From a virus, in the IMG/VR virus record IMGVR_UViG_3300028438_000001: a stretch of 40,256 nt of DNA. One strand, given 5' to 3'. Under the pieces are notes generated by a model that did not search any database, was not told the DNA's origin, and saw nothing but the letters and a program-made list of their open reading frames with translations. The position numbers and the translations under genes are program-made. The first letter of the stretch is position 1. Each line of letters opens with the position of its first letter. Of the stretch, positions 3,424 through 40,256 are shown piece after piece.

Positions 3424-3594
3424 CTAATGCATCAACGGGTCAGATTCCAGTATAACGCTTCGGCTTCCTGCCCCTGCGCTTCGGTTCAGGTAGTCGGTCG
3501 CCATCTGTTCGAGTTGCTGGCGCATGGTCATTTCCGGGGTCTGTTGCAGGCATAGCGACTCCACCAAAGCAATCAGATAGTCCAATTTGTCCAT
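3424..3594 (-). CDS. Small hypothetical protein (56 aa)
   Basis: Internal ATG 3594 of ORF 3424..3702. High third-position GC in this frame by hand count. Stop TAG abuts ATG 3423. Confidence 0.5.
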   Translation of the reverse strand: MDKLDYLIALVESLCLQQTPEMTMRQQLEQMATDYLNRSAGAGSRSVILESDPLMH

Positions 3595-3727
3595 TAAATT
3601 TGTCCGGGTTGTCGTACCAGCCTGGCTCCCATTCGTCCATCGAATGGATGATCTTCTTCCCGTGCGCCGGGTGGTAAACCCAGGACGGGAAGGTGATGTC
3701 ATCGATGTAGCCGTTACCGATTTGCAT
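3440..3727 (-). CDS. Small hypothetical protein; the 3' 150 nt overlaps 3424..3594 and looks non-coding
   Basis: ATG 3727 with GAGAG 5 nt upstream. The N-terminal part (MQIGNGYIDDITFPSWVYHPAHGKK..WYDNPDKF) has high GC3. After 3595 GC3 collapses. Confidence 0.45.
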   Translation of the reverse strand: MQIGNGYIDDITFPSWVYHPAHGKKIIHSMDEWEPGWYDNPDKFNGQIGLSDCFGGVAMPATDPGNDHAPATRTDGDRLPEPKRRGRKPKRYTGI

Positions 3728-4076
3728 AACGGCTCTCATAGCACGGCATGTGCATCGGGTCGTCCGGATGGAAGGACATCACGTCCCCGTCCATCAGGTG
3801 CCTATACGGATGCTCCTTCAAATCGCTTTCGGAATTCGTACATTTCCCGCGCAAAAATCCCGCCTTGTTTTTCTCGTGCGGCACGCGGGACAAATACCTA
3901 CAGGTATTGCAATTACGTTCGGATTCGTGGAACAGGCGCACGGATTCCTTCCGCGCCTCTTCGTAACCCGGAGCCGCCGGATACCTGGTTTTGACGCCCG
4001 GAATGACGCCTCCCGTCCATGCGACTTGATCGCCTGAAACCGTCTTTCCCGTCCAGTGGCAAACGTACGAAGGCAT
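3714..4076 (-). CDS. Hypothetical Cys/His-rich protein
   Basis: ORF track, 120 aa. TAATG junction at 4076. Confidence 0.6.
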   Translation of the reverse strand: MPSYVCHWTGKTVSGDQVAWTGGVIPGVKTRYPAAPGYEEARKESVRLFHESERNCNTCRYLSRVPHEKNKAGFLRGKCTNSESDLKEHPYRHLMDGDVMSFHPDDPMHMPCYESRYANR

Positions 4077-4399
4077 TACTCCACCGTGCCGTTAGGCAAT
4101 ACGCCCGCATCCTGCGACGGACGCGCGATAACGATCTTGTATTCCTCGGACCCGGCATTGACCGCGGTCGTGGCCGAATTCTGGAACGTAATCGCCAGCG
4201 TGTCCTTAGCCGAAATACGGGCATTGACGATGCCCAATCCTGCCGTTGCGGTCGGCTTGATGACGTTCAGCACGACATCGTTGGTCGTCACGCCCTTGAG
4301 CGTGAAAGTTTGCTCAGCACTGGTCTGCGCGTTGACAGAGGCCGGATCCATGGTCAGACGGCATACCCGGATCGATTGAATATTGGTTTGTGGAATCAT
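4076..4399 (-). CDS. Small all-beta (Ig-like?) protein, paralog of 985..1335, translationally coupled to the glycosyltransferase
   Basis: Internal ATG 4399 of ORF 4076..4651 forms an ATGA overlap with the stop of 4396..5145. 107 aa, Thr/Ser/Asn/Val-rich. Confidence 0.65.
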   Translation of the reverse strand: MIPQTNIQSIRVCRLTMDPASVNAQTSAEQTFTLKGVTTNDVVLNVIKPTATAGLGIVNARISAKDTLAITFQNSATTAVNAGSEEYKIVIARPSQDAGVLPNGTVE

Positions 4400-5145
4400 G
4401 CTACTTGCCTCATGGCTTCTTCTCGAAGCCGTAAAAAGTGTTCGGCGAAATTGCCCTTGAATTCCTTCATTCCGACGTGAACCAGATCGGCATCCGGTTC
4501 GAGCCACAGTTCGCCGCCGAGCGCTTCCCATTTCCTGGACAGCCAATAATCCTCGCCCCAGTAGCCGTTGTCCCGCTCCCCGTGCTCGAACACGGGGCGG
4601 CAGGCGCGGCCCTGGCAGTCCTTGTACTCCCGGCCCTTTTCCGCCTCCCACAGCGCTTCGACGGCCTCCCGCGTGAAGCGGATAAAGCCGCCGGAGAGCA
4701 TGTCCGCGCGGATTAATGGGCCGTCATGGATGGTGAATCCTTCGGCGTCCTCGGCTAATCGGGTGGTGAACTGGTCCCAGGCGTTTTTAACCGGATAGGC
4801 GCAGCCGACAATGGGCTTGTCGGCCAGCCACAGTTTCAACACCGTTCCCGGCTTGAATCCCATGTCGGAATCGATGAACAGCAGGTCGCTCGCGTCCGAT
4901 GACAGGAACATGGACAGCATGGAGTTCCGCGCCCGGTCGATGTAGGAATCGCCCGGCAACGGCTTGAACTCCGCCGCAAGATCAAGGTTCCTAAGCGTCA
5001 TCATCAGATTGACGAGACTTAGGGTGTATTGCAGCCACGTCGTACAGAGATAGAACGGCGTTGCCACAAAGAGCTTGCGGGACCGCAAGGGCTCCAGTTG
5101 CTTCAAAATGGCCTGATAGTCTTTCGATCCCGCGTCACTCATCAT
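4396..5145 (-). CDS. GT-A-fold glycosyltransferase-like protein
   Basis: 249 aa. ..GDSYIDRARNSMLSMFL.SDASDLLFIDSDMGF.. carries a DXD-type motif (DSD) in a context typical of GT-A enzymes. ATGA overlap with the coat gene stop. Confidence 0.6.
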   Translation of the reverse strand: MMSDAGSKDYQAILKQLEPLRSRKLFVATPFYLCTTWLQYTLSLVNLMMTLRNLDLAAEFKPLPGDSYIDRARNSMLSMFLSSDASDLLFIDSDMGFKPGTVLKLWLADKPIVGCAYPVKNAWDQFTTRLAEDAEGFTIHDGPLIRADMLSGGFIRFTREAVEALWEAEKGREYKDCQGRACRPVFEHGERDNGYWGEDYWLSRKWEALGGELWLEPDADLVHVGMKEFKGNFAEHFLRLREEAMRQVA

Positions 5146-6374
5146 TCACCCCATAGTCTGCAAGCCGTTTCCGGACGCTGGCACAGCCAGCCGTAGAGGA
5201 CATCGGCACGGCCCAGGAACACGTCGTTGTTGATGTCGTAGTCGAACACGATACGTAGCGAAATGCCGTCCATGACCGCCCGCGAGCCCATGTGCACGCC
5301 TTCCGGCAACACAAGGTCGGCGGTCGCCAGCGTGAATGAATCCTGGTGATAAACGAGGTTCTGGGTGTAGGCCGTCGCCGAACTGCCGACGAACGTCACA
5401 TCCGCGTTGTCCGCGATCTGATCGGAAGCCGCCGATACGGTCTGTCGCGCACCGCTGAAAATGATCGGCGGGTCGATGGTGATGGATGCCGTCGAACTGG
5501 TGTCCGAATTCGCGTCCGCCTTCGCAACGAACTGTTGCAGCACCGCCAAGGCCGTCTTGGTTTCCGGATTGACCGCGTAGGCTCCCTCGATGGTGAACAC
5601 GTCGCCCGCCTTGACCGCGCCGGTTTGGGACGCGCCGAAACCGTCCACGGAAATGGTGGAAGTCGATGTCGTGATCGCCCCCTTGATTTCCTTGGTTGCC
5701 GTGGAGATCGTGCCAACCATGTGACGGTTAACGTTCTGGTCCATGGTGATTTCCTTGAGGCCCAACACGTCCATGCCCATCAGTCCTTTCTTGAACTGCT
5801 TGGAGATGGTGTCGCCGTTGTGGAACAGGCCTTTCATACCGTCCACAAGGTAGGCGTTCGCGGTCGGGTTGATCGTCGCGCAACGCCGCCCGTCGCTGGG
5901 GGTATTGGTGAGGTCTAGCTTTTCCTGCGCCAGAAGCAGCGAGAGAGCGGTGCTCGGCGTGGTGCCCGGCGTTCCGACGCTGTTGTACACGTCCTTGTAG
6001 AGCGCCAAGCCGTCCGCGTCCACGGTTGCCGCCAAGACAGCCATGGCCGGTTGCAGGAAGCGTTCACGCAGATCGTCGATCTTCATGGTCAGTTCCAGGC
6101 TGGAGAATTCCAGCGGGACATGAGCCTGCGTCGAGACGGTCAGCGTTGTGTATTCCTCCACGCTGTCACGCGAGGTCGAAAGCGTTGCCGACTTGGTAAC
6201 GGCGTATTTCGGAGGCTTGCGGATGCGGAGCGTGGTGCCGATTTTGGCCCCCTTCTTCGCGAAAGAGCTGTCATATTGACGGTTTACTGTCCGCGTGAAA
6301 CCCAGGTTAGCGTGCAACACGTCCAAGGCTTCCCGCGTAATCTGGTCAATGGTAAGTAAAGTGTTGCTTGCCAT
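5142..6374 (-). CDS. Major capsid protein (P22 coat-like)
   Basis: 410 aa. The N-terminus TIDQITREALDVLHANLGFTRTVNRQYDSSFAKKGAKIGTTLRIRKP matches the P22 coat-family N-arm pattern. Follows the scaffold gene. Confidence 0.8.
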   Translation of the reverse strand: MASNTLLTIDQITREALDVLHANLGFTRTVNRQYDSSFAKKGAKIGTTLRIRKPPKYAVTKSATLSTSRDSVEEYTTLTVSTQAHVPLEFSSLELTMKIDDLRERFLQPAMAVLAATVDADGLALYKDVYNSVGTPGTTPSTALSLLLAQEKLDLTNTPSDGRRCATINPTANAYLVDGMKGLFHNGDTISKQFKKGLMGMDVLGLKEITMDQNVNRHMVGTISTATKEIKGAITTSTSTISVDGFGASQTGAVKAGDVFTIEGAYAVNPETKTALAVLQQFVAKADANSDTSSTASITIDPPIIFSGARQTVSAASDQIADNADVTFVGSSATAYTQNLVYHQDSFTLATADLVLPEGVHMGSRAVMDGISLRIVFDYDINNDVFLGRADVLYGWLCQRPETACRLWGE

Positions 6375-14758: not shown

Positions 14759-14842
14759 ACAGGTTGATATAACAAAATGTTATTTGCACCACATGCGCAT
14801 GTGGACTAATCTATACCCAACGCTGAGGGGTTGGCCCGAGGC
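14759..14842 (+). promoter_or_regulatory. 84-bp promoter/operator unit, copy 1 (TTGCAC-N17-TAATCT with two palindromes)
   Basis: -35 at 14784-14789 and -10 at 14807-14812. A 16-bp perfect palindrome CCACATGCGCATGTGG (14789-14804) sits in the spacer, and ATAACA-aaa-TGTTAT lies at 14769-14783. Repeated at 15572-15655 with 2 mismatches. Confidence 0.6.
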
Positions 14843-14861: not shown

Positions 14862-15539
14862 ATGACCTCAATGATTAATCTCCGCGAACGCGGATCAGAT
14901 AAGGACACGTCCTGGATGGACGTGGATGTGTCGAGCCGTGGCGTATGGCTGCGCCCGGCGTCCTGGGTATCGGAGACATCCGGTATCGAATACCGGGTGT
15001 TCGCCTGGGCCGGCACGGAGGAGGGATTGGAAATCCCGCCCGCCGCAGACCCTGCGCGCGGTTGGGCTGGACCCGCAGTATTCCTGCCGATCAGCGAGGT
15101 ATATGACTACCTCGCGGCAAATGGCCATGACGGCCCCGTGTCGGATATGGTGTCCGATATCACATATGCCGCCCGTAAGGCGGAGCGGACCTCTCCATGG
15201 GCTACCATCAACAAACCAAAGCTACTAAAGCTACTAAATGCTTTTTCGGCCAACATGCTGGCCGAGTTCCCGTCCTCCGTGACTTTCACGGAGATTTTGG
15301 TGCACGAGGCAGCTAATCTCGCACGTAATGCGGAATCGGCGGTCGGACACGCCGACACAGCCGCCGTGTTTGCGGCAGTGCTTGGCGTGCCGGTCGAGTG
15401 TCGGCGCGTGAGCGTCGAGCTTCACCCCGGTGACTCGGCAGTCATCGGGCAGTATCGCGGTCCACGGTTGCCAGAAGGGGCAACCACTCTGCCCGAGGGC
15501 GCGGAGATTAAATGGCTGCTGTGCAAGATAGCTGCATAA
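14862..15539 (+). CDS. Hypothetical protein; the C-terminal about 75 aa resemble the DUF1874 / STIV B116-like DNA-binding fold
   Basis: ORF track, 225 aa, with AGGAGG RBS. The C-terminus is HADTAAVFAAVLGVPVECRRVSVELHPGDSAVIGQYRGPRLPEGATTLPEGAEIKW (family recalled by eye). Confidence 0.6.
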   Translation: MTSMINLRERGSDKDTSWMDVDVSSRGVWLRPASWVSETSGIEYRVFAWAGTEEGLEIPPAADPARGWAGPAVFLPISEVYDYLAANGHDGPVSDMVSDITYAARKAERTSPWATINKPKLLKLLNAFSANMLAEFPSSVTFTEILVHEAANLARNAESAVGHADTAAVFAAVLGVPVECRRVSVELHPGDSAVIGQYRGPRLPEGATTLPEGAEIKWLLCKIAA

Positions 15540-15571
15540 TGCACACGCCGCCTATAGCGCCGCCCGCCGGG

Positions 15572-15655
15572 ACAGTTTGATATAACAAAATGTTATTTGC
15601 ACTACATGCGCATGTGGACTAATCTATACCCAACGCTGAGGGGTTGGCCCGAGGC
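15572..15655 (+). promoter_or_regulatory. 84-bp promoter/operator unit, copy 2
   Basis: Identical to 14759-14842 except 2 nt. -35 at 15597-15602 and -10 at 15620-15625. Confidence 0.6.
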
Positions 15656-15701
15656 CCGGCGCAACGGCGGTTCCGTTGCAGGCAACCTAGGAGAAAAAAA
15701 A

Positions 15702-15863
15702 ATGAAAAGTCACATGACTTGGAAAGTAAGGGCCAAGGACTTGGCCTGGTTCGGTATCTCCATGGACAGGAGGAAAGCCACCAAGTACGCCCGCAAGGCG
15801 TACAAAACAGGCCGCCAAGTAGGCCCGTTCTACTGGACGGACCTTGGCCTTGAGGCTGGTTAA
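15702..15863 (+). CDS. Small basic hypothetical protein (53 aa)
   Basis: ATG 15702 follows aGGAGa plus an A-run. The upstream part of ORF 15597..15863 is the promoter repeat. Confidence 0.55.
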   Translation: MKSHMTWKVRAKDLAWFGISMDRRKATKYARKAYKTGRQVGPFYWTDLGLEAG

Positions 15864-16091
15864 ATGGCCATCCGCCGCCTCTTCCTCGTGCGCCGCACCC
15901 CCTCACATACGGTTGTAGCGCACACGGTGATCCGCGAGACTCAGGAGGGACAACGGATGTTCCTCCTCCGGATCACGCCGGACTCAGGTCCGATGCCGGA
16001 CGTATCGAACCTGATTGGTAAACCCTACGCCGCCCGCCGGGATTTGTGGGCTGATATCAAGGCAAGGATGCTCGAACTCAGTTTAATCTAG
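15864..16091 (+). CDS. Hypothetical protein (75 aa)
   Basis: ORF track. The ATG directly follows the upstream TAA. Confidence 0.5.
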   Translation: MAIRRLFLVRRTPSHTVVAHTVIRETQEGQRMFLLRITPDSGPMPDVSNLIGKPYAARRDLWADIKARMLELSLI

Positions 16092-16127
16092 CCTCTAGCT
16101 ACCGAGGCGAACCAAGGGGAGACGAAA

Positions 16128-16385
16128 ATGAACGCAAATGTAATCGAAACTTTATGGATCGACGGGCAGAAGAAGGACGGCTCTAACGCCGGACCTATCC
16201 CGCTTGAGCTTCGCCTGGACGGCGAACGGTTCCGGTGGTACTGCCAAGACTACAACCAGGACGGCATCCCTGGAGGGGATTGCGTATTGGATACGGAAAT
16301 CAGCGGCAGCACCGAAGACGAGGCCATGGAGGCCGCTTGGCAATCATGGGGCAGTTCGGCTTGGAACCTGCGCACCGCCCCGTAA
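16128..16385 (+). CDS. Hypothetical acidic protein (85 aa)
   Basis: ORF track. GGGGAG RBS. Confidence 0.6.
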   Translation: MNANVIETLWIDGQKKDGSNAGPIPLELRLDGERFRWYCQDYNQDGIPGGDCVLDTEISGSTEDEAMEAAWQSWGSSAWNLRTAP

Positions 16386-16431
16386 CTCATCCACCCACCG
16401 CCCACGGACGGGCATAACAGGAGATAAGACG

Positions 16432-16809
16432 ATGAAAACAAAAGTTAAAAACCTGAAAAACGGCCGCATTGTTGTAGAAACCCGCGCCGTAGGAGATGAG
16501 ATCGAATATATCGATCCGGACGATGGCGAATTTGCAAAATGTGGCGCCATTGGGACGTTTTTCACTGTCGAAACAACGCTCCCGCGAAATCACGGTACTC
16601 GTTACAGCGCCGGCCTATGCGACCATCCGGACGGAGTTGCCGGAAACATGAACAAATCTATCCGGTGTCATCACGGATGGAGGGGAACCACCGGTAATAG
16701 AGCCGTCTACGCGCACGGACGACGGCAGGTTATAGAATCCCGACCATTGAGCCGGGGTGTTGGCTGGCGCACGGTATTGAGCGCTGACCTGTCCCCGAAC
16801 GAGGAGTGA
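16432..16809 (+). CDS. Hypothetical protein (125 aa)
   Basis: ATG 16432 after CAGGAGA. Preceded by a conserved 31-nt motif that is shared with the gene at 17366. Confidence 0.6.
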   Translation: MKTKVKNLKNGRIVVETRAVGDEIEYIDPDDGEFAKCGAIGTFFTVETTLPRNHGTRYSAGLCDHPDGVAGNMNKSIRCHHGWRGTTGNRAVYAHGRRQVIESRPLSRGVGWRTVLSADLSPNEE

Positions 16810-16812
16810 GGC

Positions 16813-17289
16813 ATGGACGCCATTGACGCAATCGTGGGTTGGCGCAAGGGCCTCAAATTTCGTGGCATCGCCGAATTACGACACTCTAATTTAGAGAGTG
16901 TTTTGATGTTGCCATGCTATGCACATCTGCGAGCCATCGCGCCCAACTGGAGCCACCATGCTATAGCATGTGTCGCGTTATCCCTAGCAACCGCCAGGAT
17001 GAACGATAAAGAAGACATTTTCTCCGGCCTGGCACATGCCAAGGCGGATTTTCCGAACTCAGGCCAGCGGCATATTTACGATTTCCGATTCGATGCCCTG
17101 CTCAAATCATACGATTGGCCTGAGTTTTACGCGGCATTGAGCACTATTATCAAGGTACTGATGCAACGAAACGGGGGCGCAAACTGGCGTAGCATAGTCC
17201 ATGTAGTGCACGACTTTGACACTGGATCGAACTGGAAAATTTCAGCCGCGGAAAAATATTATTGCTATCAGGGGGCGGATCATGACTAG
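16813..17289 (+). CDS. Helical 158-aa protein resembling the CRISPR type I-E small subunit Cse2/CasB (unverified)
   Basis: GAGGAG RBS. The blocks MDAIDAI, IAELRHS..LP.Y, RFDALLKSYDW, NWRSIVHVVHDF and AAEKYY parallel the Cse2 family layout as I remember it. AT-richer than the flanks. Confidence 0.35.
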   Translation: MDAIDAIVGWRKGLKFRGIAELRHSNLESVLMLPCYAHLRAIAPNWSHHAIACVALSLATARMNDKEDIFSGLAHAKADFPNSGQRHIYDFRFDALLKSYDWPEFYAALSTIIKVLMQRNGGANWRSIVHVVHDFDTGSNWKISAAEKYYCYQGADHD

Positions 17290-17365
17290 CCCCTGCCAAC
17301 CAGCTTTTTGCGCTGCCCGTTTAACCCATCAACGCCCAAGGACGGGCATAGCAGGAGAGAGAAAA

Positions 17366-17530
17366 ATGAATGTAATCAACATCAACGGAATTCATTACAT
17401 CGTGGTTTCCGAAAAGCCATTTTCGCACAATGGTAAACAGCGCACTGTTTTAACCCTGAGATTACCGAAAGGTAAGCGCCACTACGAAGCCGTTATTTAT
17501 GAAAATGGCTCAATCAGCGAGGTAGTGTAA
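17366..17530 (+). CDS. Small hypothetical protein (54 aa)
   Basis: ATG 17366 after CAGGAGAGAG. Same upstream motif as the gene at 16432. Confidence 0.55.
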   Translation: MNVININGIHYIVVSEKPFSHNGKQRTVLTLRLPKGKRHYEAVIYENGSISEVV

Positions 17531-17757
17531 TGGAAATAGCACGCAAGATCAGAATCCACAGAGCCGCAACAACTAGCCGAGAATACGACGCTATCACCGT
17601 TGTAATAGCTGATTTACATCTAAGGTGCGACCTGGTTTGTGACCGGCAGATTCGACTAGCAAACGCACTAGCGGAATCCCATGGAATCCCATTAACCGTG
17701 GACGACACACTAGCGGAAAGAGTACGAAAAGCGCTGCATAGGGAAAAAAATGACTAA
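17530..17757 (+). CDS. Hypothetical protein (75 aa)
   Basis: ORF track. TAATG junction. Confidence 0.55.
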   Translation: MEIARKIRIHRAATTSREYDAITVVIADLHLRCDLVCDRQIRLANALAESHGIPLTVDDTLAERVRKALHREKND

Positions 17758-17920
17758 CCCAGGCGCCGCCCTCCAGTCCCTCCGCCGCCGGGTAGAGAAA
17801 ACCTGCCCGGTGTGCGGAGAAACATTCACCGGCTACGAATACGCGGTCGTATGCCGGAAACCCGCCTGTAAATCGGCCTGGAAACGACGGAAAGCCAAGG
17901 CCAATAAAAAAGCCCCGTAA
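17750..17920 (+). CDS. Small zinc-ribbon protein (56 aa)
   Basis: Hand translation: MTNPGAALQSLRRRVEKTCPVCGETFTGYEYAVVCRKPACKSAWKRRKAKANKKAP. Below the 60-aa track cutoff. Ends at the terminator. Confidence 0.5.
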   Translation: MTNPGAALQSLRRRVEKTCPVCGETFTGYEYAVVCRKPACKSAWKRRKAKANKKAP

Positions 17921-17938
17921 CAGGGGCTTTTCTTTTTT
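17908..17938. terminator. Bidirectional intrinsic terminator between convergent operons
   Basis: aaagcccc-gtaaca-ggggcttt is flanked by an A-run and tcttttttt. Confidence 0.7.
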
Positions 17939-22957: not shown

Positions 22958-23760
22958 GTCAGAAAATCACGTGCTCGGGTTTTTGGTTCCGTCCGCGCCA
23001 TCGATGCATTGCTGATTGCGGCAACTCTAGGCGCTCTGTCCTGGGCTCTGCTCAACCAACCCGTCAGGAATCTGGCGTAGTTGGATTTTCGGTTCTTCGG
23101 GTTTGCAATCAACCAAGCTGCTGCCCTTGCAAGCTCGGCATCCAGACTGAGGGCTGGATAGGCTCTCTGCCAAGCATCCCGTAGTCCGGGTGTTATGTGC
23201 AGAAATTGAATCCCGTCGAACTCGATTTTTTTTGTTTCGGCAGAAGAAACGAACGAAGTGAGTTTCTTCTCTTGGTTTCTTCTTGGTTTCTTCTTGGTTT
23301 CTTCTTTGCCCGTTACCAATTCGGTAACCGTTAAGTTACCGATTCGGTAACCGTTTAGTTCCGATTCGGTAACCGTTTCTGATTCGGTAACCGTTTCTGA
23401 TTCGGTAACCGTTTCTGATTCGGTAACCGTTTCATTGGCATCTAACGCGATTTTCAACGCCTCTGTGATTTCTGTAGGAACCGTGATTTTGTACTGAGTG
23501 GGCGACGATCTGCCGCCGCTTCCGCACTTTTCTAGCCATCCGAGCCTGACTAATTCAGTGGTCGCCGTGGAAATCTTGCAGAGAGGCAATCCGCACCGTA
23601 CCGCCAAAGTTTCTCTTTTCGGGAAAATCACATCGGTTCCGCGTGAACGGAACGATAGCAGGGCTATCAGAACGCGAATATGTGTCAGAGATAGCCGCTT
23701 ATCGAATGCTATTTCGACCGGTACAAAAGAAAACGGGAGACGATCGGCTGTCACGCTCAA
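22954..23760 (-). CDS. Replication initiator (lambda O-like, winged-helix N-terminus) containing the origin iterons
   Basis: ORF track 22954..23778. There is no ATG near the N-terminus. TTG 23760 gives a TTGA overlap with the upstream stop. The internal ETVTES x4 is encoded by the iterons. Confidence 0.65.
   Translation of the reverse strand: MSVTADRLPFSFVPVEIAFDKRLSLTHIRVLIALLSFRSRGTDVIFPKRETLAVRCGLPLCKISTATTELVRLGWLEKCGSGGRSSPTQYKITVPTEITEALKIALDANETVTESETVTESETVTESETVTESELNGYRIGNLTVTELVTGKEETKKKPRRNQEKKLTSFVSSAETKKIEFDGIQFLHITPGLRDAWQRAYPALSLDAELARAAAWLIANPKNRKSNYARFLTGWLSRAQDRAPRVAAISNASMARTEPKTRARDFLT
23264..23306. repeat. Three 11-bp repeats (tttcttcttgg) next to the iterons (possible unwinding element)
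   Basis: Read directly: tttcttctcttggtttcttcttggtttcttcttggtttcttcttt. Confidence 0.5.
23319..23431. repeat. Six iterons ATTCGGTAACCGTT (putative ori)
   Basis: Copies start at 23319, 23342, 23364, 23382, 23400 and 23418. The last four are spaced 18 bp apart. All lie within the initiator gene. Confidence 0.75.
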
Positions 23761-26717: not shown

Positions 26718-26872
26718 ATGCGGTAATTAAAGGCATGAGCAGGAGCATGAGCAGGAGCATGAGCAGGAGCAGGAGCGGGAGCAGGAGCGGGAGCCTGAGC
26801 TGGAGCTTGAGCAGGAGCTGGAGCGGGAGCAGGTGCTTGAGCCGGAGCTGGAGCCGGAGCTGGAGTTTATAG
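26714..26872 (+). CDS. Ser-alternating (X-S)n repeat peptide 1 (52 aa)
   Basis: ATG 26714 in an ATGA overlap with the upstream stop. MNAVIKG then MSRSMSRSMSRSRSGSRSGSLSWSLSRSWSGSRCLSRSWSRSWSL. Coding status is uncertain because of low complexity. Confidence 0.45.
   Translation: MNAVIKGMSRSMSRSMSRSRSGSRSGSLSWSLSRSWSGSRCLSRSWSRSWSL
26735..26866. repeat. 22 tandem hexamers NNGAGC
   Basis: Parsed unit by unit from the sequence. Confidence 0.9.
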
Positions 26873-26874
26873 AA

Positions 26875-27111
26875 ATGAATGCGGCAATTAAGAGCAGAAC
26901 CGGGAGCTGGAGCTTGAGCAGGAGCAGGAGCCTGAGCGGGAGCTGGAGCTGGAGCTGGAGCGGGACCTGGAGCGGGAGCATGAGCAGGAGCATGAGCTGG
27001 AGCTGGACCTGGAGCGGGACCTGGAGCGGGATCAGGAGCGGGAGCCTGAGCTGGAGCTTGAGCAGGAGCTGGAGCGGGAGCAGGAGCAGGAGCAGGAGCA
27101 GGTTCTTATAG
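26875..27111 (+). CDS. Ser-alternating (X-S)n repeat peptide 2 (78 aa)
   Basis: ATG 26875 lies 2 nt after the first ORF's stop. It has the same head (MNAAIK) and the same TTATAG end as peptide 1, in a different absolute frame. Confidence 0.45.
   Translation: MNAAIKSRTGSWSLSRSRSLSGSWSWSWSGTWSGSMSRSMSWSWTWSGTWSGIRSGSLSWSLSRSWSGSRSRSRSRFL
26890..27105. repeat. 36 tandem hexamers NNGAGC
   Basis: Parsed unit by unit. A few units have ACC/ATC/TTC instead of AGC. Confidence 0.9.
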
Positions 27112-30944: not shown

Positions 30945-31247
30945 ATGAGCGAATTAGATGAAGCAATCCAGCTAGTAGATGAATGGAACCATGATAGGAG
31001 ACGCGCAACCCACGGTGATGCCGTATGGGCCGGGTTAAAGCTTATTCAAGAAATCGAGCGCCTTAGCGCCGAAATCGAAGCGCTGCGGGGAGTTCACGAA
31101 TCTGCGACCCGTGTATTCAAATTTCACGCTGTCAACAAACGAAATTTTTTTATGGCGTTACGTGATTTGGAAAGTGAGCTTAATCGGGTTGCCGAGATCG
31201 AAGCCGCGAGAAAGGGGGGAATGATGCGCGAATGCAAAGAGTTCTGA
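30945..31247 (+). CDS. Hypothetical coiled-coil protein (100 aa)
   Basis: ATG 30945 after GGAGGA. In frame with ORF 30927..31247. Confidence 0.6.
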   Translation: MSELDEAIQLVDEWNHDRRRATHGDAVWAGLKLIQEIERLSAEIEALRGVHESATRVFKFHAVNKRNFFMALRDLESELNRVAEIEAARKGGMMRECKEF

Positions 31248-31287
31248 CCCTATGATCCTGGACAGATTTATTCGGCTGCGTGATGCG
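31248..31287 (+). repeat. 40-bp perfect direct repeat R1 (decoy copy of the xis 5' end)
   Basis: ccctatgatcctggacagatttattcggctgcgtgatgcg is identical to 31570-31609. Here the MILDRFIRLRDA reading frame stops after 23 codons. Confidence 0.9.
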
Positions 31288-31529: not shown

Positions 31530-31569
31530 CTGAAATAACCGTCAAATACACCCATGCAACGAGACTTGC

Positions 31570-31609
31570 CCCTATGATCCTGGACAGATTTATTCGGCTG
31601 CGTGATGCG
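31570..31609 (+). repeat. 40-bp perfect direct repeat R2 (true xis 5' end)
   Basis: Identical to 31248-31287. Confidence 0.9.
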
Positions 31610-31936
31610 CCTGGGTATCTGGGCATAAACAAAAACGATTTCAATGCGACTGTTCGCCCCCTACTGACCGAAATTCCGATGATGGCTCGGGGCATTGGAT
31701 TCGACCGGCTTGAGCTAGACGCCTGGTTCGAGGAATATAAGGCCCGCAACGGGAGACCGCCGCGCACAGAGGAGATGCAACCATGGCAAAGAGAAAAACG
31801 CCAGGGCTCACCTATACGGGCGGGCAATGGGTCATCGATAAAAGAGTCCAGGGATTCGGACGACTTTTTGAGCGCACTGGAATCGGTGACAAGGGGAAGG
31901 AAGCGGAAGCCGTCGCCTATCTCAACCGAAGGCTAG
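31574..31936 (+). CDS. xis: Excisionase / AlpA-like HTH protein
   Basis: RLRDAPGYLGINKNDFNATVRPLLTEIP...GFDRLELDAWFEEY resembles HTH_17-type excisionases. The 3' 154 nt overlaps int. Confidence 0.55.
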   Translation: MILDRFIRLRDAPGYLGINKNDFNATVRPLLTEIPMMARGIGFDRLELDAWFEEYKARNGRPPRTEEMQPWQREKRQGSPIRAGNGSSIKESRDSDDFLSALESVTRGRKRKPSPISTEG

Positions 31937-32907
31937 GCGAAATACGGGACCATCAGGAAAGGGAGAAGAATGGAATCCATACGTTTCGGCAGGCGGCAAC
32001 GCGATATCTCAAGAGCGAGACCAAGCGGAGTTTGGATAGGGATGCGTATTGCCTAAAAGCGGCCGATCCGTTCATCGGGGCACTACAATTGGAGCACGTT
32101 CACATGGGAACGCTTCAGCCGTTCATCGATAGCCGGAGGGACGAGGGAATCAAGTCGTCAACGGTGGTCAGGGAATTGTCAATTATTCGCCGGGTGCTGA
32201 CCCTGGCTGCCCGGCAGTACCGGGACGAACAAGGGCGCCCGTGGCTCAAACAGGCCGTGCCCATGTTTACCATGCCGGATTGGGAAGACGCGGCGCAGGC
32301 TTACCCGCTCAATTGGGAAGAGCAAAAGCGGTTTTTTAGGCTCCTGCCGGATTATTTAGCGGCCATGGCCCTGTTCGGGGTCAACACCGGGCTAAGAGAG
32401 CAAGGGATATGTTGGCTACGGTGGGATTGGGAAGTGAAAGTGCCGGAACTCGGAATCTCGGTATTCATCACGCCAGGCAAGCCGCGGATTTACTCTGACG
32501 GAAAATGGACAGGCGAGAAGAACAAGGAAGACCAGGTTGTCGTTCTAAACCGCGTGGCTCGCTCCGTGGTCGACGGACAGCGCGGCAAGCACCCGGTCTA
32601 CGTGTTCCCGCACCGGGACAAGCGCCTCAATACCATGTATCGAAGCGCCTGGATCACGGCGTGGAGAAAAGCCGGATTGCCGACAGACGAAAGCGTGTGC
32701 CGAGGTCCGCACAACCTCAAGCACACGTTCGGCAGGCGATTATCCGCCGCTGGAGTGCCGCCCGACATTCGAAAAGCGCTGCTCCATCATACAACGGGTG
32801 ACGTTACGTTGCATTACTCGCCGGCCGACATCGGGCGGTTGCTGGAAGCAGCTGAAATGGTCGTGCAGCAAGATCGCGAGTGGACGGTTTTGAGGAGGGT
32901 GAGGTGA
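31783..32907 (+). CDS. int: Tyrosine integrase
   Basis: 374 aa. GLREQGICWLRW, HNLKHTFGRRL and LLHHTTGDVTLHY correspond to the R...HxxR...Y catalytic pattern. Confidence 0.9.
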   Translation: MAKRKTPGLTYTGGQWVIDKRVQGFGRLFERTGIGDKGKEAEAVAYLNRRLGEIRDHQEREKNGIHTFRQAATRYLKSETKRSLDRDAYCLKAADPFIGALQLEHVHMGTLQPFIDSRRDEGIKSSTVVRELSIIRRVLTLAARQYRDEQGRPWLKQAVPMFTMPDWEDAAQAYPLNWEEQKRFFRLLPDYLAAMALFGVNTGLREQGICWLRWDWEVKVPELGISVFITPGKPRIYSDGKWTGEKNKEDQVVVLNRVARSVVDGQRGKHPVYVFPHRDKRLNTMYRSAWITAWRKAGLPTDESVCRGPHNLKHTFGRRLSAAGVPPDIRKALLHHTTGDVTLHYSPADIGRLLEAAEMVVQQDREWTVLRRVR

Positions 32908-39447: not shown

Positions 39448-40256
39448 TTACCCCAAAAGACTACCGAATTTAGGTCCGAAATTCTGAAACGCGGTGTTTG
39501 CGCCGAGATTGTTCGCGAACGTGCTTGTATTGCCGCCGCCGCTGCCGCCGCCGCTTCCGCCAAACCCACCGCTGCCCGCATACATGCCTAACGAACCGAT
39601 GCTATTCAATGCGCTGGATAATCCGGAGGCCATCGCATTCGCGCCCATCACGTTGTAATTGCCTGCGGCGTTGACGGCATTCGCCGTGCCCTGATTGTTC
39701 GCTTGTTGGCCTTGAAACGCCAGTTGCGCCAACTGCCCGAGCGTTTGGAGCCCTTGGCCCGATTGACCGGTGAGTTTCCCGAACTTGGCCTCGCGCTCGC
39801 CAACCCGAGCCGTGTAATCCGCCAAATGCCCCGTATAAGCCCGCCCATAGGCCGAATCTAATAGATTCCGGTAGCGGTCGTAAATATTGCCGAATTCGTT
39901 GGAGGCGAAATTCTGGCCATACTGCTGCAAGGCTTTCCCGGTCTGGCCGGATAGCAAGCCGCCGCGCGCCGCCGCGCTGTTTTCCACGATCTTTTGGCCC
40001 TCGTCCCGGCGGAACAGATAGCCGGGATCGGTTTCCCACTTGCCTTCCGAGATCAGCCCTTTGTCGAGCAAGAACTGATAGGTGGGGTCTTTCCGGGCAT
40101 CTTCCGGCGTGAACGAGAATTCGCGCCACAGGTTTTCCGAGAATTCGCCCGGACGCACCGCGCCGCTTTTCTGTACCTCAGCCGCTCGCTGGATATCGGC
40201 CAAGCGCCGCCCGGCGTCGTCCAGGTTTTTCTTGAGCTGTTCCTGCTGCGCCAACC
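39448..40256 (-). CDS. Internal virion / ejection protein, 3' part of the junction-spanning gene (see 1..476)
   Basis: ORF track 39448..40254 has no genuine start at the window edge. The frame continues upstream via the circular junction. Gly-rich C-terminus GSGGFGGSGGGSGGGN. Confidence 0.75.
   Translation of the reverse strand, partial: LAQQEQLKKNLDDAGRRLADIQRAAEVQKSGAVRPGEFSENLWREFSFTPEDARKDPTYQFLLDKGLISEGKWETDPGYLFRRDEGQKIVENSAAARGGLLSGQTGKALQQYGQNFASNEFGNIYDRYRNLLDSAYGRAYTGHLADYTARVGEREAKFGKLTGQSGQGLQTLGQLAQLAFQGQQANNQGTANAVNAAGNYNVMGANAMASGLSSALNSIGSLGMYAGSGGFGGSGGGSGGGNTSTFANNLGANTAFQNFGPKFGSLLG
40130..40256. repeat. Terminal redundancy: identical to 1-127
   Basis: Same 127-nt string as the window start. 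Confidence 0.95.

Follow-up and report, generated by a model that had tools for sequence, protein, structure and literature searches.

Why would a phage carry a gene for the small subunit of the type I-E Cascade complex and no other gene of that complex? The question is raised by IMG/VR record IMGVR_UViG_3300028438_000001, a stretch of 40,256 nucleotides that was analysed at its full length (hereafter the window), in which one open reading frame (ORF) was taken in the original prediction, made by eye from the sequence, for an orphan Cse2/CasB-like gene and a possible anti-CRISPR decoy. It was established here that the product is a true, diverged homologue of Cse2/CasB (Cas11e), that it belongs to a separate clade of such proteins found outside cas operons, and that its operon opens with a gene of the AcrIII-1/Crn2 type. 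These observations make it a candidate anti-CRISPR protein that may act as a faulty Cascade subunit. The gene in question is:

16813..17289, + strand: orphan Cse2/CasB (Cas11e) homologue, 158 aa, ATG-to-TAG ORF; candidate dominant-negative small subunit

The ORF is preceded by the ribosome-binding site (RBS) GAGGAG, 9 nt 5' of the ATG, and a gap of 3 nt separates the stop codon of the preceding gene from this start; the reading frame is unbroken in more than 24 contigs. All the Cse2/CasB blocks that the original prediction had listed are present in the protein (MDAIDA, AELRH, LPCY, RFDALLKSYD, NWRSIVHVVHDF and WKISAAEKYY), and in a joint MAFFT alignment they coincide with segments of E. coli CasB (AQIRR, IPAFY, RRIFQLIRAD, DWPLMARMLTWW and LLEDF; reference sequence from NC_000913). 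The profile libraries lead to the same family, each with a sole match: Pfam PF09485 (24.3 bits, E 4.5e-5, profile positions 3-133 of 137), NCBIfam TIGR02548 (22.9 bits, E 7.6e-5) and PADLOC Cas11e (E 1.1e-6). A metagenomic sibling, P0002, which is 82% identical, clears the Pfam gathering score with 29.0 bits. When ten orphan proteins of this family were aligned by hhalign with 27 Cse2 proteins of the clade encoded in cas operons, the two groups matched over 157 columns with a probability of 99.3% and E 8.4e-21. A phmmer search of the PDB sequences with the window protein alone gave no Cse2 match and the family profile was needed; this profile, searched against 177,635 PDB sequences, matched E. 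coli CasB and nothing else (E 1.9e-4).

The predicted structure agrees with the profiles. The AlphaFold2 (AF2) model, built from an alignment of 11 sequences, has a mean predicted local distance difference test score (pLDDT) of 91.6 and a predicted template modelling score (pTM) of 0.87, and it consists of ten helices, as expected from the earlier description of an all-helical protein of typical Cse2 length. In a Foldseek search of the PDB, ranks 1-7 were all occupied by type I-E Cse2/CasB chains (8YB6_K, two chains of 3WA8, 4H79, 5U0A_J and two chains of 5U07) with template modelling (TM) scores of 0.59-0.76 and probabilities of 0.99-1.0, after which the TM score fell to about 0.2. Profiles and Foldseek gave Cse2 alone, and no confident match to an unrelated helical family appeared. 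A mimic of type III Cas11 (Csm2/Cmr5) was rejected, as no such structures were among the Foldseek matches, and a chance similarity between helical bundles was rejected on the hhalign E value and on the full-length, Cse2-exclusive Foldseek matches. The 16813-17289 product is confirmed as a diverged Cse2/CasB (Cas11e) homologue. The bare homology is not new, since an identical protein of Methylocaldum gracile and Methylocaldum sp. 0917 (WP_133719057.1) has already been named 'type I-E CRISPR-associated protein Cse2/CasB' by the NCBI pipeline. The divergence is deep: direct alignment with P0005, a Cse2 encoded in a cas operon, gives at most 30% identity. PHROGs holds no match for the Cse2-like protein or for most proteins encoded around it.

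What has been retained and what has been lost can be read from a comparison of the ten orphans with 53 cellular Cse2 proteins in E. coli numbering. In Cascade, each Cse2 subunit is docked on Cas7 by R27 and R101, which make a triad with D22 and W199 of Cas7 and touch those bases of the target strand that are flipped out; the displaced non-target strand is held in a basic groove across the dimer of Cse2, movement of Cse2 lies behind R-loop stabilisation and Cas3 recruitment, and a salt bridge links E150 to R483 of Cse1 (PMC5965380). The equivalents of three arginines are as follows:

E. coli R26: R23 in the window protein; Arg in 10 of 10 orphans; basic in 98% of cellular Cse2
E. coli R27: H24 in the window protein; His in 9 of 10 orphans and Arg in 1 of 10; Arg in 53 of 53 cellular Cse2
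E. coli R101: R92 in the window protein; Arg in 10 of 10 orphans; Arg in 53 of 53 cellular Cse2

Among alignment columns with 80% or more Lys/Arg in cellular Cse2, only the equivalents of R26 and R101 are invariably kept by the orphans; both belong to the five invariant positions of the orphan alignment, together with M1, I88 and Y150. In place of the RGARARLRR and RRxRR clusters, and of several further basic columns, the orphans have Ile, Glu, His, Ser, Thr or Met. The position of E. coli E150 is occupied by E147 in the window protein and is acidic in 5 of the 10 orphans. The net charge follows this pattern: it is +0.3 for the window protein and ranges from -3.3 to +4.1 among the ten orphans, against a mean of +10.3 (mean isoelectric point 9.75, n=28) in the one cellular clade used for this comparison, the operon-encoded Cse2. 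In spite of these replacements the gene is under purifying selection and is not decaying, as the ratio of non-synonymous to synonymous substitutions (dN/dS) between the window gene and its 82%-identical sibling is 0.22 at dS 0.50.

The solitary, phage-borne status of the gene was borne out as well. Bases 1-127 of the window recur exactly at 40130-40256, and the window is therefore a genome that is circular, with a length of 40,129 bp. Among its products are portal, coat and tail accessory proteins of the P22 type, a small terminase of the Sf6 type, an integrase, DnaB and a helix-turn-helix (HTH) repressor resembling CI. It is a P22-like temperate phage of Methylocaldum, a methane-oxidising bacterium. 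The identical Cse2-like protein is also encoded on a 5.29-Mb Methylocaldum chromosome and on a 181-kb contig, which, next to the circular genome, indicates that the phage exists both integrated and excised. A six-frame search of the window and of every orphan locus found no Cas3, Cse1, Cas7, Cas5, Cas6e, Cas1 or Cas2; the window has no CRISPR array, no tRNA and no Rfam match, and a solitary type I-E repeat, which would have pointed to an RNA anti-CRISPR, was not found in the phage at up to 3 mismatches. PADLOC, run on 58 ORFs of the window, reported two CRISPR-related matches, Cas11e for the Cse2-like gene and Csx16 for a gene upstream of it. The earlier statement that the genome has neither an array nor another cas gene therefore stands for the array and for the Cascade genes and has to be amended for the second of these matches, a Csx16/Crn2/AcrIII-1-family gene at the head of the same island:

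14862..15539, + strand: first island gene, 225 aa, with an AcrIII-1/Crn2/Csx16-type C-terminal domain

The island is a block of + strand genes (14862-17920) between blocks of - strand genes. The C-terminal domain of its first product, at residues about 123-208, is a member of the DUF1874/STIV B116 family and resembles Csx16 (Pfam PF08960, 31.1 bits at a gathering score of 26; PADLOC Csx16, E 2.5e-11), and among PDB sequences the protein matched 2J85 (STIV B116, 6e-6), 2J6B (AFV3-109), 2X4I (SIRV1 ORF114) and 6SCF, the last being the structure of SIRV1 gp29 bound to cyclic tetra-adenylate (cA4). DUF1874 proteins are the AcrIII-1/Crn2 ring nucleases that act on cA4: in viruses they serve as an anti-CRISPR against type III systems, in cells the version is Crn2, which occurs in the type III loci of several Methylococcales, and Csx16 is a related cA4 ring nuclease. 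His-47 is the absolutely conserved catalytic residue of the AcrIII-1 family; the 225-aa protein has a GH motif at the expected place, aligned with the GH of STIV B116 and AFV3-109, and LPEG is kept. It differs from AcrIII-1/Crn2 and Csx16 in an additional N-terminal part of about 120 aa, which matches no family. Judged from its sequence, the protein probably counteracts type III systems as an anti-CRISPR and is unusual in its extension. Since DUF1874 is the AcrIII-1/Crn2 family, the first gene in the operon of the Cse2-like gene is of a recognised anti-CRISPR type, and because it starts with such a ring-nuclease homologue, the island most likely serves as an anti-CRISPR locus.

The window gene is one member of a wider group. 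When 1.84 billion representative proteins were searched exhaustively with HMMER, eight matches at E <=1e-3 were returned, and P0005 was the sole match within a cas operon (cas3-cse1-cse2-cas7-cas5-cas6e-cas1-cas2). The orphans form seven lineages (window/P0002, P0003, P0004/P0010, P0006, P0007/P0011, P0008 and P0009), and the contigs of all seven are without cas genes. The contigs of the window, P0003, P0010 and P0009 are phage-like, with terminase, integrase, tail or VapE genes; those of P0006 and P0008 are short runs of small ORFs, that of P0002 is shorter than 1 kb and that of P0011 is atypical. An AcrVA2-like gene lies 1.5 kb from the orphan P0006. With E. coli CasB as the root, the orphans were monophyletic in 200 of 200 neighbour-joining (NJ) bootstraps, and they have a derived motif, IAELRH, in common. 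The closest cellular Cse2 clade comes from Desulfobacterales, Geobacter and many Methylococcales (Crenothrix, Methylobacter, Methylomonas, Methylovulum, Methylotuvimicrobium); type I-E systems of this clade are frequent in Methylococcales, the order of the host. I-E cas genes accompany cse2 in all 39 cellular loci, and most of those examined also have an array. The orphans are a separate clade of Cse2 paralogues outside cas operons, mostly on phage-like contigs. Their likeness to Cse2/CasB (PF09485, TIGR02548; 4QYZ, 5U0A, 3WA8, 4H79, 8YB6) lies in the predicted two-domain all-helical fold, the length, the end-to-end alignment, the R26 and R101 equivalents, the RF..L.KS.DW..FY core and the C-terminal A..(F/Y)Y, whereas they differ in being phage-borne outside a cas operon, in a charge of about 0 instead of about +10, in the change of R27 to His, in the lost Arg clusters, in scores slightly under the curated thresholds and in their separate clade.

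What might such a protein do in an infected cell? Because the fold and the equivalents of R26 and of the Cas7-docking R101 are kept, the orphan could occupy the position of Cse2 in the Cascade of the host, and its contact with Cse1 (E147) is possibly kept too. It would bring to this position almost none of the conserved basic residues, lacking the R27 equivalent and others that include the arginine-rich helices of the groove for the non-target strand. A Cascade with the orphan subunit would then fail to stabilise or lock the R-loop and to license Cas3, and the outcome would be a dominant-negative 'subunit poisoning'. A comparable proposal exists for another subtype. The Listeria proteins AcrIB3 and AcrIB4 are Cas homologues that give a defective type I-B Cascade; AcrIB4 is a homologue of the C-terminus of Cas8b (Cas11b) and was proposed to replace Cas11, so that the complex is unable to engage or hold DNA. 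The orphan resembles AcrIB3 and AcrIB4 as a Cascade-subunit homologue encoded by a mobile element, with replacement of the small subunit as the proposed action, and its proposed mechanism would be the I-E counterpart of that of AcrIB4. It differs from AcrIB4 in subtype and origin (I-E and a stand-alone Cse2, as opposed to I-B and a Cas8b C-terminal product), and inhibition by AcrIB4 was shown by experiment, whereas we infer that of the orphan.

Orphan viral cas genes have been described on a large scale, with 358 loci in IMG/VR (Katz et al., bioRxiv 10.1101/2023.06.24.545427), and hundreds of them are located in anti-defence loci. The present gene is like them: a virus carries it singly, lacking both an array and a cas operon, beside anti-defence genes. 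The text of that survey and the supplements available with it mention neither Cas11 nor Cse2 nor CasB. Our search of the literature found no anti-CRISPR protein (Acr) derived from a solitary Cse2/Cas11e, and two prophage studies that mention Cse2 describe no solitary gene. The gene is a candidate for a Cas-derived anti-CRISPR that acts by subunit poisoning, and our search met no earlier report of one from its family (Cas11e) and subtype (I-E). The decoy idea of the original prediction has thus gained strength from the AcrIII-1 neighbour, the AcrVA2-like gene near P0006, the loss of charge next to a conserved Arg for anchoring on Cas7, the selection on the gene and the precedent of AcrIB4, and it is still unproven. 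To the specific reading, in which a diverged, phage-adapted Cse2/Cas11e paralogue encoded in an operon with an AcrIII-1/Crn2-type gene serves as a dominant-negative Cascade small subunit, we give an even chance on the present analysis; some role against type I-E systems, by whatever mechanism, appears reasonably likely. Binding to Cascade, its inhibition and the presence of a type I-E system in the host are all three steps that we infer.

The remaining features of the island, among them a gene that directly precedes the Cse2-like one, are:

14759..14842, + strand: 84-nt element, copy 1, 5' of the first island gene; direct repeat, 98% identity
15572..15655, + strand: 84-nt element, copy 2, 5' of the second island gene
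15702-15863, 15864-16091 and 16128-16385, + strand: three small ORFs of 53, 75 and 85 aa, called on identical contigs, without family matches
16399..16424, + strand: 26-nt hairpin-plus-RBS element CGCCCACGGACGGGCATAACAGGAGA, copy 1, directly 5' of the 125-aa gene
16432..16809, + strand: 125-aa gene, product beta-rich and Cys/His-rich with a conserved HGWRGTT motif; directly 5' of the Cse2-like gene
17333..17358, + strand: 26-nt element, copy 2, directly 5' of the next gene after the Cse2-like one (54 aa)
17366-17530 (54 aa), 17530-17757 (75 aa) and 17750-17920 (56 aa), + strand: three distal ORFs, gene calls; regulators possible
17908..17931, + strand: strong intrinsic terminator closing the operon, 9-bp stem and T-run
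17925-17913, - strand: shorter terminator-like hairpin at the same place as the + strand terminator

The 125-aa protein matched no family in any profile library scanned, and its single-sequence AF2 model has a pLDDT of 35.8. A homologue with 83% identity occupies the same position upstream of the sibling orphan P0002, with a dN/dS of 0.21 between the two loci, and P0010, a distant orphan, also has one upstream (blastp E 1.5e-7 to 6.7e-9, jackhmmer 8.5e-21). The partner was not found in the other orphan lineages and is present in 2 of 7. Its family, of 125-146 aa, is marked by the motif D..DG..GN.N..I..HGWRGTT (window 16432-16809, L011 26-466, L009 66-443). The 125-aa gene is a lineage-specific companion of the Cse2-like gene. 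The 26-nt element occurs exactly twice in the window, where 0 copies are expected by chance, and its copies flank the pair formed by the 125-aa and Cse2-like genes; it could mark the edge of a cassette or provide a common translational control. Other genes of the island likewise have small hairpins immediately 5' of their RBS.

The original prediction had also described the island as AT-richer and self-promoted. The first of these properties was found (GC 0.50-0.51 at 16.5-18 kb, against about 0.57-0.60 in the flanks). Self-promotion is plausible, as a promoter is needed where the coding strand changes, but a scan with the sigma-70 consensus found none at the head of the island, nor at the 84-nt element. 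This element contains two perfect palindromes, ATAACAAAATGTTAT and CCACATGCGCATGTGG, and on sequence grounds it is a candidate for a duplicated promoter/operator. The product of the last gene (17750-17920) is basic and zinc-ribbon-like (CxxC...C), with weak RING, zf-C4 and HNH-like matches; the stop codon of this gene falls within the terminator hairpin, and a role as regulator of the island is possible.

Several other explanations have to be set against subunit poisoning. The Cse2 fold may have been exapted for a role outside CRISPR, e.g., as a helical adaptor or regulator in a moron island. Such a history would suit the deep divergence (no more than 30% identity to P0005), the lost nucleic-acid-binding surface and an old, monophyletic family with a motif of its own, IAELRH; it would also suit the lack of Methylocaldum among the Cse2 and Cas7e loci listed and the lineage (P0011) that sits among ribosomal-protein and RNA-polymerase genes. 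We nevertheless regard it as unlikely, because the residues that stayed invariant are contacts with Cas7 in Cascade, anti-CRISPR genes adjoin two independent lineages, and the orphan viral cas homologues tested so far proved to be Acrs. An anti-I-E protein could, on the other hand, work away from the Cse2 site by sequestering a partner, either in dead heterodimers with Cse2, formed through the head-to-tail dimer interface, or by capping Cse1's four-helix bundle, Cas6e or Cas3, possibly with the 125-aa neighbour. The genomic context and the selection evidence serve this explanation as well as they serve poisoning; the loss of the R27-equivalent docking arginine fits a protein that stays off Cas7, the E150 equivalent, which in E. 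coli makes the salt bridge to Cse1 R483, is E147 here and acidic in half of the orphans, and a translationally coupled partner gene is kept in two lineages. That partner is missing in 5 of 7 lineages, however, and the equivalents of R101 and R26 stand among the five invariant positions, which points to retained docking of the Cas7 type; sequestration is judged improbable.

A working small subunit, supplied by the phage to use or boost the Cascade of its host, either for the exclusion of competing phages or as a non-cutting binder, is a very unlikely alternative. The full Cse2 fold that the model predicts and the purifying selection would be expected of it, and phages are known to carry parts of CRISPR-Cas systems, but this phage has no source of CRISPR RNA (crRNA) and no other Cascade gene, nearly all the conserved basic residues that hold DNA are gone, and the neighbouring gene is of an anti-CRISPR type. 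Least probable is a functionless remnant of a captured cas operon, or a chance resemblance of helical bundles. It could draw on the scores that lie slightly under the curated cut-offs and on the fruitless phmmer search with the single protein, yet it is opposed by the dN/dS of 0.22 over a dS of 0.5 with an intact frame in more than 24 contigs, by the hhalign result, by Foldseek matches that are exclusively Cse2/CasB over the full length and by the seven conserved lineages. The pseudogene remnant was rejected, as dN/dS, Foldseek and hhalign contradict it.

Subunit poisoning itself has to face a number of observations that weigh against it. The scores of the window protein are slightly lower than the curated cut-offs, 24.6 bits for Pfam and 28.5 bits for the NCBIfam equivalog model. 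R27 is one of the two Cas7-docking arginines, and the loss of its equivalent could equally abolish binding to Cascade; the charge comparison covers one cellular Cse2 clade. Monophyly in the NJ trees may be inflated by long branches or by a shared compositional change. Profile-library scans of the island proteins found no HTH regulator of the Aca type. As to the host, Methylocaldum is absent, among the matches listed, from the 39 Cse2 loci and from the best 80 Cas7e loci, and the 2,378 I-E spacers collected from 74 loci of other genera gave no credible match to the phage (at best 23 of 34 positions, with 3 mismatches). The orphan profile scores Cse2 of the Desulfobacterales type at 64-68 bits and Cse2 of Methylococcales at 28-46 bits, and for this reason the gene was not captured recently from the lineage of the host. 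Reference collections do not contain the family: tblastn of the protein against 50,697 phage genomes and 72,556 plasmids gave no match, a pattern scan of IMG/VR with the orphan alignment found no family member, and Foldseek against BFVD found no relative (TM <=0.26). Guilt by association consequently rests on very few loci, and the association with acr genes on two. Among the further searches, megablast of the island against the 50,697 phage records gave no match, the genome-contig search with the single protein as query gave none either, and a word-indexed protein search with the family alignment added no members.

Some observations on related loci and on the phage genome stand apart from this question. 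Directly 3' of the Cse2-like gene, two separate lineages of orphans (P0003 and P0006) have a DUF1456 (PF07308) gene (L010 833-1090, L019 4918-5211), which may be a second recurrent companion. The P0011 contig (L015, also L016) carries small phage-like ORFs and a recombinase beside ribosomal-protein and RpoC-like genes; 3470-5393 and 10410-13721 of L015 encode ribosomal proteins L11, L1, L10 and L7/L12 together with a 1,103-aa protein that is RpoC-like. This contig, found in 61 sample blocks, could be an element in the rplKAJL-rpoBC region or a mobile element that carries such genes. Among the I-E loci, two of Methylovulum psychrotolerans (L044, L045) and one of Methylotuvimicrobium sp. KM1 (L060) have cas3 and the Cascade genes, with no cas1/cas2 match and no array within about 10 kb, and may be adaptation-less I-E variants; the cse2 genes of the two Methylovulum loci are near-identical. 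In the window, iteron-like tandem repeats at 23270-23433 (18-nt units GATTCGGTAACCGTTTCT, about 4-6 copies, plus an 11-nt repeat) lie inside or beside the gene 5' of dnaB and probably mark the replication origin. About 60 tandem copies of the hexamer GCAGGA, arranged in an 18-nt super-unit with a 72% match, fill 26733-27102 and are either a low-complexity coding repeat or a contingency-type repeat. Just 5' of the integrase gene (31783-32907), a 56-nt direct repeat of 91% identity (31232-31287 and 31554-31609) may be linked to the attachment site or be a duplicated regulatory region.

One may ask what the existence of such a clade would mean. The type I-E Cascade is the best-studied one and is used as a tool, and the orphans, if confirmed, would be a new source protein for its inhibitors. 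The route from a Cas subunit to an anti-CRISPR, demonstrated so far only in Listeria type I-B, would be extended to the small subunit of I-E. Further members might be recognised by a simple signature: a Cse2 profile match with no cas neighbours, a near-neutral charge and ELRH in place of RLRR. The island pairs a Cse2-like with an AcrIII-1-like gene in a phage of a methanotroph, and our literature search found no anti-CRISPR study in these bacteria. That the undescribed, charge-neutralised Cas11e clade is the first Cas11e-derived anti-CRISPR family, paired with an AcrIII-1-type ring nuclease so that type I-E and type III systems would be disarmed together, is a conclusion that we hold at slightly less than even confidence. 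A Cascade poisoned in this manner may still bind its targets without Cas3, and the immunity of the host would be turned into harmless or useful DNA binding. The orphan would be a natural separation-of-function variant of Cse2, in which the docking residues are kept and the DNA-holding surface is lost, and which bears on how the R-loop is locked and how Cas3 is licensed.

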